DNA of 38,658 nucleotides, taken from UHGV virus genome UHGV-0206453; one strand, written 5' to 3'. Position numbers and translations under genes: made by a program. Each line of letters opens with the position of its first letter. The stretch's first letter is position 1. Origin of the DNA: a virus. The notes under the pieces were generated by a model. That model ran no database searches and had not been told where the DNA came from. It saw only the letters and a program-made list of their open reading frames with translations. Of the stretch, positions 2,511-32,826 are shown in pieces.

Positions 2511-3227
<717 letters not shown>

Positions 3228-7944: not shown

Positions 7945-8292
7945 ATGGATTATTCACAGTTAAGTGATTTTGAAATTAACAAGAGAGTATTTAAAGCGAT
8001 AGTAGGAGCAAAACCATTAGGTTATCCGCACAACGCAGATGGACGGTCTGTCGGCAATGAATCAAATGGTAATTATCGATGGTACGACTACTGCAATAAT
8101 CCTGAAGATGCAGAGCCGATTATCGTAGAGAACAGAATTGGCATTATTCCAGCGCCAGAAAATGGATTATGGAAGGCAGCGCATAGAAAAGTTGGCAGTG
8201 ATAGTACCCCATATCATATGACTCAAGATGAAAACCCTCTCCGCGCCGCCATGATTGTCTTTCTCATGATGCAGGACGCCAATAATGCTTAG
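7945..8292 (+). CDS. hypothetical nin-region protein (about 115 aa)
   Basis: Internal ATG of ORF 7903..8292, GAGG 8 nt upstream. Confidence 0.55.
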   Translation: MDYSQLSDFEINKRVFKAIVGAKPLGYPHNADGRSVGNESNGNYRWYDYCNNPEDAEPIIVENRIGIIPAPENGLWKAAHRKVGSDSTPYHMTQDENPLRAAMIVFLMMQDANNA

Positions 8293-9308: not shown

Positions 9309-9493
9309 ACGCCACAATTCAAACGATACCAGAGCTTCTTATCCAGACACGAGGCAATCAGACCGAAGTGGCGAGGATGCTTTCCTGCGCAAGAGGAACA
9401 GTGCTCAAGTACAACCGAGACAGCAAAGGTGAGCGTCACGTAATAGTTAACGGCGTCCTGATGGTCAAACAGGGCAAGAGGGGAAGACCATGA
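9305..9493 (+). CDS. ninH: NinH-like protein
   Basis: 62 aa; ...TIPELLIQTRGNQTEVARMLSCARGTVLKY... resembles lambda NinH. Confidence 0.7.
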   Translation: MNATIQTIPELLIQTRGNQTEVARMLSCARGTVLKYNRDSKGERHVIVNGVLMVKQGKRGRP

Positions 9494-10113
9494 GACTCGA
9501 AAGCGTAGCTAAATTTCACTCGCCAAAAAGCCCGATGATGAGCGACTCACCACGGGCTACGGCTTCTGACTCTCTTTCCGGTACTGATGTGATGGCTGCT
9601 ATGGGGATGGCGCAATCACAAGCCGGATTCGGAATGGCTGCATTCTGTGGTAAGCATGAACTCATCCAGAACGACAAACAAAAGGCTATCAACTATCTGA
9701 TGCAATTTGCACACAAGGTATCGGGGAAATACCGTGGTGTGGCAAAGCTCGAAGGAAATACTAAGGCAAAGGTACTGCAAGTGCTCGCAACATTCGCTTA
9801 TGCGGATTATTGCCGTAGTGCCGCGACGCCTGGCGCAAGATGCAGAGATTGTCACGGTACAGGCCGTGCGGTTGATATAGCAAAAACAGAGCAGTGGGGG
9901 AGAGTTGTTGAGAAAGAATGCGGAAGATGCAAAGGTGTCGGCTATTCAAGGATGCCAGCAAGCGCCGCATATCGCGCTGTGACGATGCTAATCCCAAACC
10001 TTACTCAACCCACCTGGTCACGCACTGTTAAGCCGCTGTATGACGCTCTGGTGGTGCAATGCCACAAAGAAGAGTCAATCGCAGACAACATTTTGAATGC
10101 GGTCACACGTTAG
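9490..10113 (+). CDS. Q: late antiterminator Q (lambda type)
   Basis: 207 aa; near-identical to lambda Q as remembered (MRLESVAKFHSPKSPMMSDSPRATASD...). Confidence 0.95.
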   Translation: MRLESVAKFHSPKSPMMSDSPRATASDSLSGTDVMAAMGMAQSQAGFGMAAFCGKHELIQNDKQKAINYLMQFAHKVSGKYRGVAKLEGNTKAKVLQVLATFAYADYCRSAATPGARCRDCHGTGRAVDIAKTEQWGRVVEKECGRCKGVGYSRMPASAAYRAVTMLIPNLTQPTWSRTVKPLYDALVVQCHKEESIADNILNAVTR

Positions 10114-10384: not shown

Positions 10385-10876
10385 ATGTTAAAACGTGAAG
10401 ATGCATTGAGACTTTTTAATTACAATCCAGATACTGGAATTCTTACATGGAAGAATCCACCTCGGTCCTCTAGATTTATCTATGGCGCTGTTGTTGGCTA
10501 TAAAACAAATGGATATCTGCAGGTAAAACTTTATGGAATGCGGCTATATGTCCATAGAATTGCATGGCTGATGGTTTACAATGATTGGCCAACCGATGTG
10601 ATTGACCATATTAATGGTGATAGGTCTGATAACCGGATAGCCAATCTTCGTGTTGTTACTAACACTCAAAACTCATGGAACAGCAAGATGAGGAAAAATA
10701 ATTCATCTGGTGTGAAGGGGGTGACTTTTAATTCTGCTGCAAACAAGTGGGTTGGAAGAATTAGGGTCAATGGTAAAAGGATTCATGTAGGGTGTTTTGA
10801 CGATATCGAGGAGGCTAGAAAGGCAATGGAAAATGCCAGGATAAAATATCATGGTGAATTCTCCAGTATGGGATAG
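10385..10876 (+). CDS. HNH endonuclease with C-terminal AP2-type DNA-binding domain
   Basis: 163 aa; HNH core HRIAWLMVYNDWPTDVIDHINGDRSDNRIANL; AP2-like SGVKGVTFNSAANKWVGRIRVNGKRIHVGCFDDIEEA. Confidence 0.85.
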   Translation: MLKREDALRLFNYNPDTGILTWKNPPRSSRFIYGAVVGYKTNGYLQVKLYGMRLYVHRIAWLMVYNDWPTDVIDHINGDRSDNRIANLRVVTNTQNSWNSKMRKNNSSGVKGVTFNSAANKWVGRIRVNGKRIHVGCFDDIEEARKAMENARIKYHGEFSSMG

Positions 10877-11009
10877 ATGGGTTAATTCGCTCGTTGTGGT
10901 AGTGAGATAAAAAGAGGCGGCGCTTACTACCGATTCCGCCTAGTTGGTCACTTCGACGTATCGTCTGGAACTCCAACCATCGCAGGCTGAGAGGTCTGTA
11001 AAATGCAAT

Positions 11010-11067
11010 CCCGAAACAGTTCGCAGGTAATAGTTAGAGCCTGCATAACGGTTTCGGGATTTTTTAT
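11010..11067 (+). terminator. tR' (6S RNA) terminator
   Basis: CCCGAAAC...GTTTCGGG hairpin followed by ATTTTTTAT, same sequence as lambda tR'. Confidence 0.8.
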
Positions 11068-11472
11068 ATCTGCACAGCAGGTAAGAGCATTGAGTCGATA
11101 ATCGTGAAGAGTCGGCGAGCCTGGTTAGCCAGTGCTCTTTCCGTTGTGCTGAATTAAGCGAATACCGGAAGCAGAACCGGATCACCAAATGCGTACAGGC
11201 GTCATCGCCGCCCAGCAACAGCACAACCCAAACTGAGCCGTAGCCACTGGCTATCCTGAATTCATCAGTGATAGTTACGCTGCGGACTTCTACACATGAC
11301 CTCGTGAAAGCGGGTGGCATGAGGTTGCGCTAACAACCTCCTGCCGTTTTGCCCGTGCATATCGGTCACGAACAAATCTGATTACTAAACACAGTAGCCT
11401 GGATTTGTTCTATCAGTAATCGACCATATTCCTAATTAAATAGAGCAAATCCCCTCAATGAAGGGGTAGAGC

Positions 11473-11676
11473 ATGTACCGTATGGACAAAATCAGAGAAT
11501 GGTTCAGTTACAGCTTCGGAGGACTGACTGCGATGGGTGGCATTCTCTCCCTGAATGACTGGGCTGTCATCATTGGTATTCTTTGTACTGTCGGCACATT
11601 TGGCATCAACTGGTACTACAAGCGCAAAGAGCGCGAGGACAGATTGAATGGCAATGTCACCGGCACTACGAAATAG
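11473..11676 (+). CDS. class II holin with dual-start motif
   Basis: 67 aa; MYRMDK dual Met start, two predicted TM segments, charged C-terminus; immediately precedes endolysin. Confidence 0.7.
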
Positions 11677-11918
11677 CGTAATAGCGGCGATAAGTGGCGG
11701 GGCTATTGCTATAGCATCAGTGTTAATCACTGGCCCAAGTGGTAACGATGGTCTGGAAGGTGTCAGCTACATACCATACAAAGATATTGTTGGTGTATGG
11801 ACTGTATGTCACGGGCATACAGGAAAATAGACTGGCCCCCTGAATCTCCAGACAACCAATATCACTTATTTAAGTGATAGTCTTAATACTAGTTTTTAGA
11901 CTAGTCATTGGAGAGCAG

Positions 11919-12284
11919 ATGATTGATGTCTTAGGACCGGAGAAACGCAGACGGCGTACTACACAGGAAAAGATCGCTATTGTTCAGCAGAGTTTTGAAC
12001 CGGGAATGACAGTCTCCCTTGTTGCCCGGCAACACGGTGTGGCAGCCAGCCAGTTATTTCTCTGGCGCAAGCAATACCAGGAGGGAAGTCTTACTGCTGT
12101 GGCCGCAGGAGAACAGGTCGTTCCTGCCTCTGAACTTGCTGCCGCCATGAAGCAGATTAAAGAACTCCAGCGCCTGCTCGGCAAAAAAACGATGGAAAAT
12201 GAACTCCTTAAAGAAGCCGTTGAATATGGGCGTGCAAAAAAGTGGATAGCGCACGCGCCCTTATTGCCCGGGGATGGGGAGTAA
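11919..12284 (+). CDS. insC: IS2 transposase OrfA (InsC)
   Basis: [53 protein letters not shown]... matches IS2 InsC. Confidence 0.9.
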
Positions 12285-13147
12285 GCTTAGTCAGCCGTTG
12301 TCTCCGGGTGTCGCGTGCGCAGTTGCACGTCATTCTCAGACGAACCGATGACTGGAAAGATGGTCGCCGCAGCCGTCACTCAGATGATACGGATGTGCTT
12401 CTCCGTATACACCATGTTATCGGAGAGCTGCCCACATATGGTTATCGTCGGGTATGGGCGCTGCTTCGCAGACAGGCCGAACTTGATGGTATGCCTGCGA
12501 TCAATGCCAAACGTATTTACCGGATCATGCGCCAGAATGCGCTGTTGCTTGAGCGAAAACCCGCTGTACCGCCATCGAAACGGGCACATACCGGCAGAGT
12601 GGCTGTGAAAGAAAGTAATCAGCGATGGTGCTCTGACGGGTTCGAGTTCCGCTGTGATAACGGAGAAAAACTGCGAGTCACGTTCGCGCTGGACTGCTGT
12701 GACCGTGAGGCACTGCACTGGGCGGTCACTACGGGCGGCTTCAACAGTGAAACAGTACAGGACGTCATGCTGGGAGCGGTGGAACGCCGTTTCGGCAACG
12801 AGCTTCCGGCGTCTCCAGTAGAGTGGCTGACGGATAATGGTTCATGCTACCGGGCTAATGAAACACGGCAGTTTGCCCGGATGTTGGGGCTTGAACCGAA
12901 GAACACGGCGGTGCGGAGTCCGGAGAGTAACGGCATAGCAGAGAGCTTCGTGAAAACGATAAAGCGTGACTACATCAGTGTCATGCCCAAACCAGACGGG
13001 TTAACGGCAGCAAAGAACCTTGCAGAGGCATTCGAGCATTATAACGAATGGCATCCGCATAGTGCACTGGGTTATCGCTCGCCACGGGAATATCTACGGC
13101 AGCAAGCCAGTAATGGGTTAAGTGATAACAGGTGTCTGGAAATATAG
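12242..13147 (+). CDS. insD: IS2 transposase OrfB (InsD), expressed as InsCD via -1 frameshift
   Basis: 301-aa ORF overlapping insC in -1 frame; DDE integrase-type sequence matching IS2 InsD. Confidence 0.9.
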
Positions 13148-13483
13148 GGGCAAATCCAGAAAAGACATCATGCTCGGTAAAACGTATACCAAAGCAGAAT
13201 GCAAAACACTCTTGAATAAAGACCTTGCCACGGTCGCCAGACAAATTAACCCGTACATCAAAGTCGATATACCGGAAACAACGCGCGGCGCTCTTTACTC
13301 ATTCGTTTACAACGTGGGTGCTGGCAATTTCAGAACATCGACGCTTCTTCGCAAAATAAACCAGGGCGATATCAAAGGCGCATGTGATCAGCTACGTCGC
13401 TGGACATACGCTGGCGGTAAGCAATGGAAAGGGCTGATGACTCGCCGTGAGATTGAGCGTGAAGTCTGTTTGTGGGGGCAACA

Positions 13484-13921
13484 ATGAGCAGAGTAACCGC
13501 GATTATCTCCGCTCTGGTTATCTGCATCATCGTCTGTCTGTCATGGGCTGTTAATCATTACCGTGATAACGCCATCGCCTACAAAGAGCAACGTGATAAA
13601 GCCACATCCACAATCGCTGACATGCAGAAGCGTCAACGTGATGTAGCAGAACTTGACGCCAGATACACAAAGGAGCTTGCTGATGCTAACGCGACTATCG
13701 AAAGTCTCCGTGCTGATGTTTCTGCTGGTCGTAAGCGCCTGCAAGTCGCCGCCACCTGTGCAAAGTCAACGACCGGAGCCAGCGGCATGGGCAATGGAGA
13801 AAGCCCAAGACTTACAGCAGATGCTGAACTCAATTATTACCGTCTCCGAAGTGGAATCGACAGGATAACCGCTCAGGTTAACTACCTGCAGGAATACATC
13901 AGGACGCAATGCCTTCGATGA
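13484..13921 (+). CDS. Rz: i-spanin Rz
   Basis: ATG overlaps endolysin stop; [31 protein letters not shown]... matches lambda Rz. Confidence 0.85.
13683..13868 (+). CDS. Rz1: o-spanin Rz1 (lipoprotein) embedded in +1 frame of Rz
   Basis: Within ORF 13653..13868; signal peptide ending in lipobox LVVSAC, proline-rich mature part. Confidence 0.75.
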
Positions 13922-14357
13922 TAGCGATAATTTTACTCATCATCCTTCACATCTGGCTCTGTAGACAGGGTGATGATCACTTCTGGAGTGAATCCAGATT
14001 AAACATCTCATTGCTGATGCTTGATATTGAGCATCTGGCGCGCGGTAAGGGGCTGCGTTGAGATAAGAGCCAGTTCATTACAAAGCCTATCTACGGGTGG
14101 GCTTGATAATGAAACCGGAATTTATTCTGGGCAACCAGTTACGGCAGTACAGCGAAACAACCAAAGCCAGTAAGTGGGGAAATAACACTGGCAGCCACTG
14201 AAAGATGAACCTCCTGCCTTATGGCAAAAAAGATTCTTTGTAGTGGCGGACTGATGGAAAGACATCGGATAGAATAAAACAGTGGCTAGGGTAGCTCCCG
14301 AAAAGCGGAATCGTCACCGCCAGCCACTGAATCTATGACGAACAACTAGACGAGGTT

Positions 14358-14576
14358 GTGATGGATGATAACGGAAACCAATGGATCAATGTTGAACACC
14401 GGCTACCAGAAAGCAAAGAAGGGATGTGGTCTAAAGAGGTTATAGCTCTTACTGATACTGGTGACGTGTTCAAACTATCATGTATGGGCTCTTACTGGCA
14501 GAGAACCAAGGCATTCATCGATTCAGGAGCAAGCAAGGTTACACACTGGATGCCGCTTAATTACCCAGATGATTAA
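14358..14576 (+). CDS. DUF551-like phage protein
   Basis: 72 aa; WINVEHRLPE ... THWMPL motifs. Confidence 0.6.
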   Translation: MMDDNGNQWINVEHRLPESKEGMWSKEVIALTDTGDVFKLSCMGSYWQRTKAFIDSGASKVTHWMPLNYPDD

Positions 14577-14593
14577 AACGGATGAAAAATGAA

Positions 14594-14618
14594 AGGTCGC
14601 TCAGGCGGCCTTTTTTAT
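14594..14618 (+). terminator. rho-independent terminator
   Basis: Imperfect GC hairpin (AGGTCGC/GCGGCCT) followed by TTTTTTATT. Confidence 0.5.
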
Positions 14619-14723
14619 TGCCATCACAAAAGCCATTCCCTACAGAGTGGCTTTGATAATGGCTTATACCCTACACGGGTTAACTTAACTGATATCCCTT
14701 TTAACGGATAAACGGAGCCAACA

Positions 14724-14873
14724 ATGGCAGAGATTATTCCTATGACTGAAGAACAGAAATTCCAGTTAGAGATTTACAAACTGGTCATGAACCAGAACGC
14801 AGCCGCAGAGGAAGCATTTCAGTTCATTGGCACTGACGAGCTGAAGCTTGAGCTATTCAAAATTCACTTCTAG
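14724..14873 (+). CDS. hypothetical small protein (49 aa)
   Basis: Hand-translated ORF MAEIIPMTEEQKFQLEIYKLVMNQ... with GGAG RBS; in-frame TAG followed by 30 more sense codons. Confidence 0.4.
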   Translation: MAEIIPMTEEQKFQLEIYKLVMNQNAAAEEAFQFIGTDELKLELFKIHF

Positions 14874-14968
14874 TCAGGTGGCGCTAATTCAGATATCACG
14901 ACCCGAACTATCGAAGCGGTGCGTAAATCGAAGGAAGCGTTAGACCTGTTCACTACCGGAGCATAAAC

Positions 14969-15409
14969 ATGGCGCGCCCAACAAAGTATCAAGAGGCGTA
15001 CGCCGAACAGGCACGCAAACTGTGCTTGCTGGGCTACACCGATGCAGAGCTTGCTGATTTCTTCGAAGTCAGTGAGTCAACTATTAACAAGTGGAAGCTT
15101 GATTATCCTAAGTTTTCGGAGTCCATAAAAAAGGGTAAGGCCGTCGCTGATGCAGAAGTTAGTGATCGTCTTTATCAACGCGCTATGGGCTTCGTGGCTC
15201 CAGACATCGATATTCGTGTTATTGAAAACAGAATTGTCGAAACTCCGCTTGAGAAGTATTACCCGCCTGATACAACCGCTGCCATCTTCTGGCTTAAGAA
15301 CCGACAGAAGGATAAATGGCGCGACAAGGTTGATCACGAGCTAACAGGCAAAGACGGCGGCGCAATCCAGATTGAAACATCACCGATGAGCACTCTATTC
15401 GGAAAATGA
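14969..15409 (+). CDS. terminase small subunit
   Basis: 146 aa; HTH-like N-terminus, GGAG RBS, immediately upstream of and overlapping large terminase. Confidence 0.8.
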   Translation: MARPTKYQEAYAEQARKLCLLGYTDAELADFFEVSESTINKWKLDYPKFSESIKKGKAVADAEVSDRLYQRAMGFVAPDIDIRVIENRIVETPLEKYYPPDTTAAIFWLKNRQKDKWRDKVDHELTGKDGGAIQIETSPMSTLFGK

Positions 15410-28720: not shown

Positions 28721-31099
28721 ATGACTAATATAACACCAAATGTGGTTATAGGAATGCCTTCGCAACTCTTCACTATGGCGCGTTCTTTTAAAGCCGTAGC
28801 CAATGGCAAAATTTATATCGGTAAAATTGATACTGACCCGGTAAATCCTGAAAACCAGATTCAGGTTTATGTAGAGAACGAAGACGGTTCTCACATTCCT
28901 GTTGCACAGCCAATCATCATTAACGCTGGCGGATATCCGGTATATAACGGACAGATTGCCAAATTCGTTACTGTACAGGGCCATTCTATGGCTGTTTATG
29001 ATGCGTATGGTGCACAGCAGTTTTATTTTCCGAATACGCTGAAGTACGATCCAGATCAATTTAGCTACCAACTTTCATCTGCAAATGGTGCATATCTTGT
29101 TGGTTATGCAACGTCAACTGTTGGTGATTCACTTGATGATATTAATAATGGAAAAATAGTTACCAGTTTTGTGTCAGATTTGAATGCTGATAATAGGGAT
29201 ATTATTTTCGGGCAAACAGGTAATGTATATATACCAAGTAATATAACAGTAAGATGCAACCTTCTTCCTGACGATGACGTAACAAAATTAACTGGAGAAG
29301 GAAAAATTCTCACCAGAGATCCATGGGGGAATGAGCACATATTTGATGTTGGATTGGCAACTCATGGCAGTAAATTTACATGCAGTGGTGTTATTAATCA
29401 ACATGCCAGATTGAATGAATTATGTAGAGTTGGAATTGTTGGAGACTCAATCACTGACGGCGCATACGGTGCTGGATGGTCAGCTAATCCAACCGATTCT
29501 AATGGTGACCTATCTTCAACTAACTACGATCACAATAGTAATGGTGGTTCAGGTTCTTGGTTTCGCACATTTACCGACTGGCTTAACCGATTTACTAAAA
29601 ATAGTGCTTACATATTTAAGGCTGAAAACTGCGCATCTTCTGGAAAGCGACTCATTGACGGGTGGGCTAATCGTAACTTCGATCATGGATTTTTCAAAAA
29701 TACAGCATACGGAAATACCGCACCGGATGTGTGTTTTCTTTCAATGGGCGTAAATGATAATGGGCAGATTGATAGCATTGGATTTGATCAGTATCTATAT
29801 CGTTTCGAGCAATTTATTCGCAAAGCTTGGGGTTATGGATGCGCTGTCTGTGTCGTCTCAATGAACCAAAATGGATCACAATGGGGAGCCCTTGAAGCAT
29901 CAATTAAGAAGAGCATTGAAAGATTGATGCCTGCTGTAGAGTTTCTTGACCTATCACAGGCGGTTACAGATATGTACAGAGATGTTGGCAGTCACACTCT
30001 TCAGGAAATAGCTCGTAGACCTACAGATGGGACTTTTGATGCCACGCATTTTGCGCCTCTTGGACACCAATATATTGGTGCTTATGCCGCAAAGGAATTT
30101 ATGCCTTATCGAGTTCATATTGCGAAGAATGGTAACAACTTCGTACCGAATGTTGATAATGATATACAGGCTATCGGTTACCCTTCAGGCGCTATTTACA
30201 GCGTTAGCATGGAGAGATTGAGCGGTAACACATATCTTAATGGAATAACAGGGTGGGGAACGATAAAACCATCATCTGAAAATGTTACTATCCGTTACTT
30301 TATCTGGTGCGATACATCAGATTTATCAATGGTTATTTTCGAGCCTTATAACCCTTCCTATGTTACTGATGGCCGAGCCAACTCATTTTCAGTTATAGAG
30401 CAAGACATTCGTAATGGCGTATATATATCTGGCAACATTGCAAGCAACGGGATTGCGTCATTTACAAACAAGTTGACAACGAGAACAACAACCCTCAAAA
30501 AAGGATTGAATCAGATAGAAGTTATTTATGATGGTTCCCCATCAAAAGTATATCCACCAGGGCTGTTGTTTAGAGGAGATTTGAAAGAGTCATGCTCGCA
30601 AAATGCTTCAGTGTATCTTGCTGAAAATGCAATAAAAGGAGTATATGGGCAGGTAAGGGATAGAGCTGATTTGTTATTGTCGTATGCGGCAGAAACTGCT
30701 AATGATGAATCTCCTGATATGTATGGTGCAACTAAATCACCAAATGTTCAAAATGTTGCTTTATCATCAATTCCTGTTGGCTGCGGAGTGGTTTTTTACT
30801 ATAAACCTTCTTCACAAAGCGGAGTTGTTGCAAAGAGAACTTCAACTGGAATTGAGATTTCAACAATGCTTTTCGGCGAACTAACAGTTGTTGGAACTTT
30901 AACATGTGATGTTACAGGGGAAGTAATGCTCACAGCTAGTTTGAATGGCTTAACTCCCACAATAACAGTTAAGCCAACTACTGGTGCAACTGTTACTAAT
31001 CCTGTTCCCGGTTTCTCTGGTGGAAAAATAGCTCTAATAAACAAAGGAGCAAGTGGAAAAACATTATCTGTGAAATATTCTTCACACTATATTATTTAA
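28721..31099 (+). CDS. tailspike: P22-type head-binding N-domain fused to SGNH/GDSL esterase-type receptor domain
   Basis: Internal ATG of ORF 28619..31099; N-terminus [38 protein letters not shown] matches P22 gp9 head-binding domain; SGNH blocks [21 protein letters not shown]. Confidence 0.85.
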
Positions 31100-32770: not shown

Positions 32771-32802
32771 GAGTGCTATCTCCGAATAGGGAATCGAACC
32801 TG

Positions 32803-32826
32803 CAAATCAGGCAATAAAAAACCGCC
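32803..32826 (-). terminator. rho-independent terminator upstream of alpA-like gene
   Basis: Minus-strand CCGCC-tgat-GGCGG hairpin followed by TTTTTTAT. Confidence 0.5.

Follow-up and report, generated by a model that had tools for sequence, protein, structure and literature searches.

The window, i.e. the whole stretch of 38,658 nucleotides of viral DNA analysed in this work (UHGV virus genome UHGV-0206453), carries on its plus strand a gene of the DUF2560 family (P22 orf80, HK620 hkbM, Sf6 gene 67) that consists of 80 codons and a TAA stop (14724..14966) and is interrupted at codon 50. The part that is open from the start codon (14724..14873, +) comprises 49 codons and ends with the amber codon TAG (14871..14873, +). 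It is preceded by a Shine-Dalgarno (SD) motif GGAG (14714..14717, +), read from the sequence 6 nt upstream of the ATG. Behind the TAG, the former C-terminal part (14874..14966, +) keeps its frame for 30 codons up to the original stop TAA at 14964-14966, and its amino acid sequence is still that of the wild type. An earlier note on this DNA had described an ORF of 49 codons with a good ribosome-binding site that ends at TAG, followed by 30 more open codons up to a TAA just before the small terminase gene, and both parts of this description agree with the positions given here. Two bases (AC) separate the TAA from the ATG of terS at 14969. The small terminase gene (14958..15409, +, its own SD GGAG at 14958-14961 included) is of CUS-3 type, with 99.3% identity over 146 aa to CUS-3 terS, and is assigned to phrog_309, terminase small subunit (E 1e-67).

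The region between the lysis cassette and terS had also been regarded as gene-poor. This part of the description has to be amended, since the region holds a DUF551 gene (14358-14576) and an ORF of 50 codons (13909-14061) with 94% identity to Sf6 gene 65. Directly 3' of the DUF551 gene lies a GC-rich hairpin with a T-run (ggtcgctcaggcggcctttttta, 14594-14625, +). Its appearance is that of an intrinsic terminator within the operon, 5' of orf80; a simple terminator scanner gave no call for it. Scanning 13900-15100 for promoters and terminators yielded counts no higher than in shuffled sequence.

By geometry alone, the open frame behind the TAG is not more than chance would provide. At least 30 sense codons are present in 23.6% of 3,266 stop-to-stop intervals of the whole window, and in 29% of the intervals that follow its long ORFs. 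The commonness of such stretches (24% in the window) speaks for a coincidental frame behind a complete gene of 49 codons. This explanation is ruled out by the homology of the joined product, of the tail and of P22 Orf80, and we give it no weight. The conceptual product of 80 aa matches Pfam PF10834 (DUF2560) over the entire profile (positions 1-72 of 72, E 1.1e-43, 147.7 bits at a cut-off of 25 bits) and falls into phrog_571 (E 2e-41), labelled 'unknown function' in PHROGs. The open product of 49 residues spans only positions 1-45 of the 72, and the tail of 30 aa by itself matches the C-terminal third of the profile (positions 47-72, E 1.2e-10, 41.9 bits). P22 Orf80 (NP_059625.1) is identical to the conceptual product at 79 of 80 residues, with Gln at position 50. 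The tail equals residues 51-80 of the consensus protein of uninterrupted relatives and differs from P22 Orf80 only by K69R. The chance reading, which the earlier note had also considered, is thus abandoned, the more so as the frame is continuous in relatives.

Similar DNA is widespread. Nucleotide identity amounts to 95-98% in 207 phage records, which belong to P22-like phages of Escherichia, Salmonella, Shigella and Klebsiella, and lies within the same range in 946 E. coli records; prophage matches occur in 941 of 5,426 complete E. coli genomes, i.e. in about one in six. Annotations of the locus in phage records include DUF2560, hkbM (HK620, CUS-3), gene 67 (Sf6) and gene 69 (epsilon34). P22 Orf80, HK620 HkbM, Sf6 gp67, CUS-3 HkbM and epsilon34 gp69 belong to the same family as the window copy (PF10834, phrog_571). 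P22 Orf80 has the same length, and its gene likewise follows the lysis genes and accessory ORFs of the late operon; the copies of CUS-3, phiKp_30, Sf6 and HK620 are alike in SD and start, the GGAG being unchanged across the five-phage alignment. The difference lies in codon 50, which is CAG in P22 and TAG in the window, where only 49 codons are open. The conceptual product thus covers the full-length profile of the family, and the frame of about 80 codons is broken by an in-frame TAG at codon 50. Because of this TAG and because the open product is confined to profile positions 1-45, the locus is a truncated or pseudogene allele of the PF10834/P22 Orf80 family.

The position of the gene is typical as well. 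In the late operon of this P22-like phage, it lies 3' of the lysis genes and borders the packaging module on the left; orf80 occupies the same position in CUS-3, phiKp_30, Sf6, HK620 and P22. Among 99 loci, all but 2 have one of several types of terS or small ORF 0-80 nt 3' of orf80, and at least six different downstream genes follow orf80 across these loci. The 3' end of orf80 is thus a mosaic junction.

The comparison with related phages that had been proposed as a check, namely whether they carry a continuous ORF, gave a positive result: relatives hold an uninterrupted gene of 80 codons with CAG in place of the TAG, in line with the suggestion of the earlier note that the gene is interrupted by a nonsense codon. 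TAG of the window aligns with CAG in CUS-3, phiKp_30, Sf6 and HK620 (4/4). In a set of 87 full-length copies gathered from IMG/VR loci, phage records and contigs, 82 read CAG at codon 50; these include every uninterrupted copy (82/82), and P22 orf80 reads likewise. Since relatives and P22 agree on CAG, codon 50 was converted from CAG (Gln50) to TAG by one C->T transition, at position 14871. Origin of this transition at a Dcm deamination hotspot was considered and rejected, as the wild-type context TTCCAGTC is not CCWGG.

The 82 intact copies represent 74 nucleotide haplotypes, all encoding one identical protein of 80 aa, which is shared by phages of Escherichia, Salmonella, Shigella and Klebsiella (loci L015-L094 and phage records). 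Third codon positions make up 35 of the 42 variable sites of the gene, and these 35 are found in both parts (16 within codons 1-49, 19 within the final 30 codons). The copies were chosen by protein identity, so that this sample is biased. A separate alignment of 25 diverse members (down to 60% identity; Serratia, Shimwellia, Salmonella, Escherichia) places the C-terminal segment among the best conserved ones. Residues D57, E71, L75 and F76 are invariant in this alignment, and R61, A65, V66, R67, K70, L73 and D74 are nearly invariant.

The amber allele itself recurs in other records. Exact look-up of the 49-aa product returned 18 contigs, and among the 10 of them that are listed, four have a true internal TAG. 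The other six listed contigs (L009-L014) were rejected as amber alleles; they are look-up artefacts, contigs whose sequence stops within codon 50 or shortly before it, and the wild-type C is visible in three of them. The same TAG is found in L005 (ENA ERZ28603820) and L008 (Logan SRR28856024), which match the window without any difference over 7,767 bp and 6,191 bp, respectively. As two separately accessioned, fully identical contigs share the TAG, a private sequencing error at 14871 seems unlikely. L005 begins 53 bp inside the IS2 copy that disrupts the endolysin gene of the window (see below) and carries the right-hand IS2 junction together with the TAG. It therefore derives from the same phage as the window, and the two may come from one sample.

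The two remaining contigs with the TAG, L006 and L007, have P22-type terS and orf80 haplotypes that depart from that of the window at 5 and 9 sites. Each of them differs from a CAG haplotype by 1-3 sites and from other amber haplotypes by 5-10. Being nearer to CAG haplotypes than to amber ones, they show that TAG at codon 50 has arisen at least three times. At the same time, the allele is rare. A search of 5,426 complete E. coli genomes with both local haplotypes gave no hit, and no codon-50 TAG pattern was found in phage records, IMG/VR, GTDB species representatives or JGI metagenomes.

Codon 50 is not the only site of truncation. Nonsense alleles of DUF2560 were detected at codon 39 (GAG->TAG and GAA->TAA) and at codon 56 (TCA->TAA and TCG->TAG). 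They occur in other prophages (L095-L105) on several mosaic backgrounds, with the remaining frame intact. In addition, a frameshift-type variant (protein P0002) leaves the family sequence after residue 46. E39* and S56* resemble Q50* of the window in being premature stops produced by a single hit; their frequency is very low, and the frame around them is otherwise intact. These two arise by G:C->T:A transversions, whereas the change at codon 50 is a C->T transition. Index entries amount to 70 blocks for the 38-aa product, 55 blocks for the 55-aa product and 18 contigs for the 49-aa product, compared with 48,713 blocks for the intact protein of 80 aa. Judged from these alleles, codon 50 is not special as a truncation site. 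The overall pattern looks as would be expected of rare, short-lived null alleles under purifying selection, made visible by a huge sample.

An intact frame behind a stop codon is also expected if the full-length protein is still made and selected. The UAG could be decoded by a host amber suppressor of glnV/supE type, or by leaky near-cognate reading, so that the 80-aa protein is still produced and the stop is silent or regulatory. Since the ancestral codon is CAG, a suppressor inserting Gln would give back the exact wild-type sequence, and in the five amber copies the 30 downstream codons contain neither a further stop nor any amino acid change except one A80V. An intact tail is, however, equally expected of a recent mutation, and the ochre (TAA) copies at codons 39 and 56 keep an intact tail although TAA could not be read by an amber suppressor. 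The stop is not conserved, all 82 uninterrupted copies and P22 reading CAG and the TAG pattern being unmatched in five collections. No tRNA genes were found in the window. TAG terminates 7 of its 42 long ORFs, and at least two of these, with stops at 8290 and 24531, end exactly where their CUS-3 homologues do. CUS-3 proteins gave 39 tblastn alignments to the window, and an in-frame stop is present in that of hkbM alone. The base after the TAG is U, which we read as a context of efficient termination; in E. coli, U after the stop is reportedly favourable to it. Reassignment of TAG to Gln, or a suppressor tRNA encoded by the phage, was rejected on the same grounds, namely a single gene with an in-frame stop, no tRNA, and TAG in use as a genuine terminator. 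TAG is read as Gln in stop-codon-recoded phages such as some crAss-like and Lak phages. The window resembles these in having an in-frame TAG where relatives have Gln, but, unlike them, it has just one such TAG, encodes no suppressor tRNA, uses TAG as a normal terminator and belongs to a clade (P22-like phages of Enterobacteriaceae) with standard code. The readthrough extension that the earlier note had allowed for is thus not upheld, and decoding of this UAG into the full-length protein is considered improbable.

Two further explanations concern the origin of the T at 14871 and the reason for its presence. The true phage could read CAG, with T being a sequencing, assembly or consensus artefact or a minority variant. 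The difference is indeed a single base, the amber allele is absent from every curated genome collection searched, and the 49-aa product has a GenBank accession 'MAG TPA Caudoviricetes sp.', so that the window is probably a genome derived from a metagenome. Nevertheless, ERZ28603820 and SRR28856024, which come from different pipelines, agree on the T, each in a fully identical stretch of 6-8 kb, and the same C->T change is present on two further haplotypes. An artefact is considered improbable. Alternatively, inactivation might be selected: Orf80 could be harmful in some hosts, for example through toxicity upon leaky prophage expression or as a trigger of an abortive-infection or other defence system, and Q50* and similar alleles would then be escape or adaptive alleles, not products of neutral decay. 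Premature stops have occurred repeatedly and independently at no fewer than three codons, on different mosaic backgrounds and each by one clean hit, which speaks for this explanation. Against it, all nonsense alleles together make up about 0.1-0.3% of index entries for the commonest intact protein, many entries of truncated products are contig-end fragments, and such a frequency is what mutation-selection balance predicts in a very large sample. Orf80 is otherwise under strong purifying selection, and DUF2560 has no match among the defence-system models of PADLOC. Selected inactivation is therefore regarded as about as improbable as readthrough.

The locus of the window is thus very probably a natural nonsense allele (Q50amber) of the late-operon gene orf80 (DUF2560) in a P22-like Lederbergvirus, a CUS-3-like phage. 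Translation starting at the strong SD and ATG 14724 would end at the UAG and give a fragment of 49 residues. The 30 downstream codons would represent a remainder of the gene that has not yet decayed, intact because the mutation is presumably recent and not because they are translated.

AlphaFold2, run on the family alignment, gave a model of medium confidence (pLDDT 77.5, pTM 0.61). It consists of four helices (residues 9-20, 25-35, 39-51 and 58-78), and the position of the TAG corresponds to the end of helix 3. The fragment would accordingly retain predicted helices 1-3 and lack predicted helix 4, which is encoded by the 30-codon tail. This is the longest predicted helix and one of the best-conserved segments of the protein; with the tail, the truncated product also loses the four residues D57, E71, L75 and F76 that are invariant in the family alignment. 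Because a long and well-conserved helix is removed, the 49-aa fragment is probably non-functional, judging by this model and by the conservation.

Consequences for terS are expected to be minor. A polar effect of the amber codon on terS is unlikely because late transcription of lambdoid phages is antiterminated. A structured RNA, or sequestration of the terS ribosome-binding site, within the 95 nt left untranslated was rejected, the fold of 14860-15010 being no stabler than that of shuffled sequence (z = -0.35). In the wild type, only 2 nt separate the orf80 stop from the terS ATG, so that the amber codon may slightly reduce translational coupling of the two genes. As terS keeps its own ribosome-binding site and the structural genes comparable with CUS-3 are intact, the lesion would cost only the accessory function of Orf80.

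A second inactivating lesion is found 1.7 kb upstream of the orf80 amber codon. A complete IS2 of 1,331 bp (11829-13159; ends TAGACTGGCC... and ...GGGGCAAATCCA) is inserted in the endolysin gene, with its InsC and InsD ORFs at 11874-12284 and 12242-13147 and a 5-bp target duplication GAAAA in the flanks (11824-11828 and 13160-13164). The N-terminal fragment of the endolysin resembles a SAR-type signal anchor together with the catalytic motif E-x8-D-x5-T, and it is split by IS2 from the remaining lysozyme domain (13122-13487). Given this disruption, the phage should be lysis-defective. Two independent knockouts, of orf80 and of the endolysin gene, fit a lineage in which selection on lytic functions is relaxed.

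The window does not have the appearance of a defective prophage in other respects. Although it bears this further inactivating lesion, neither chromosomal integration nor widespread gene loss is seen, and no gene for packaging, head or tail that can be compared with CUS-3 is shortened. The att core of CUS-3 is present in a single internal copy on the minus strand (32790-32805, TTGCAGGTTCGATTCC), upstream of an integrase gene whose product is 100% identical to CUS-3 integrase, and the window contains neither flanking bacterial DNA nor a terminal repeat. The single internal att core together with the circularly permuted gene order indicate the attP form, i.e. a CUS-3-like genome that is circularly permuted and not integrated. 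It is odd that a genome whose endolysin gene is disrupted was recovered in this form.

Several other genes of the window deserve mention. In the tailspike (28721-31099, +), residues 1-113 form a P22-type head-binding domain, to which domains similar to G7C gp63 are joined. It shows a weak, sub-threshold similarity to the GDSL/SGNH esterase family (25.1 bits, cut-off 32.9), which hints that it may be of the O-antigen deacetylase type and not an endosialidase as in CUS-3. The GTG start listed for this gene (28619) is probably wrong, as homology to CUS-3 begins at 28721. An HNH endonuclease gene with an AP2 domain, of homing-endonuclease type (10385-10876, +), is located between a gene for a Q-like antiterminator (9490-10113) and the lysis genes, and is followed by two unassigned minus-strand ORFs (10940-11320 and 11455-11730). 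Finally, an ORF of 330 aa with a P63C domain (1332-2324, -) lies between the genes for an N-like antiterminator (529-987) and a repressor (2511-3224). P22-like phages often carry exclusion genes in this moron position; the P63C-domain ORF has no match in PADLOC.

Searches for a function of DUF2560 were negative. No sequence relatives were found in PDB (best E 0.09), and a fold search of PDB gave no match at E <= 0.001. Fold search against BFVD retrieved uncharacterised viral proteins only. Neither PADLOC nor NCBIfam models matched. In the searchable literature, no functional study of DUF2560, hkbM or orf80 was found, mentions of DUF2560 being incidental, and papers on phage L, on epsilon34 and on the evolution of Sf6 contain nothing on orf80.

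The feature is real but ordinary: it is a rare nonsense allele of a known and widespread phage gene. For annotation, this means that the locus should be described as a DUF2560/orf80 gene broken by a nonsense codon and not as a gene of 49 codons with an empty spacer behind it, and that it should not be listed as a candidate for readthrough or recoding. Together with IS2 in the endolysin gene, the orf80 amber codon marks an otherwise complete CUS-3-like genome as a knockout-accumulating lineage. Few small genes of P22-like phages are as well conserved as orf80, yet it is without known function, and natural orf80 null alleles may offer ready-made material for a phenotype test. Should selected inactivation prove to be true, such alleles would provide the first functional handle on a gene that is present in about one in six complete E. 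coli genomes.
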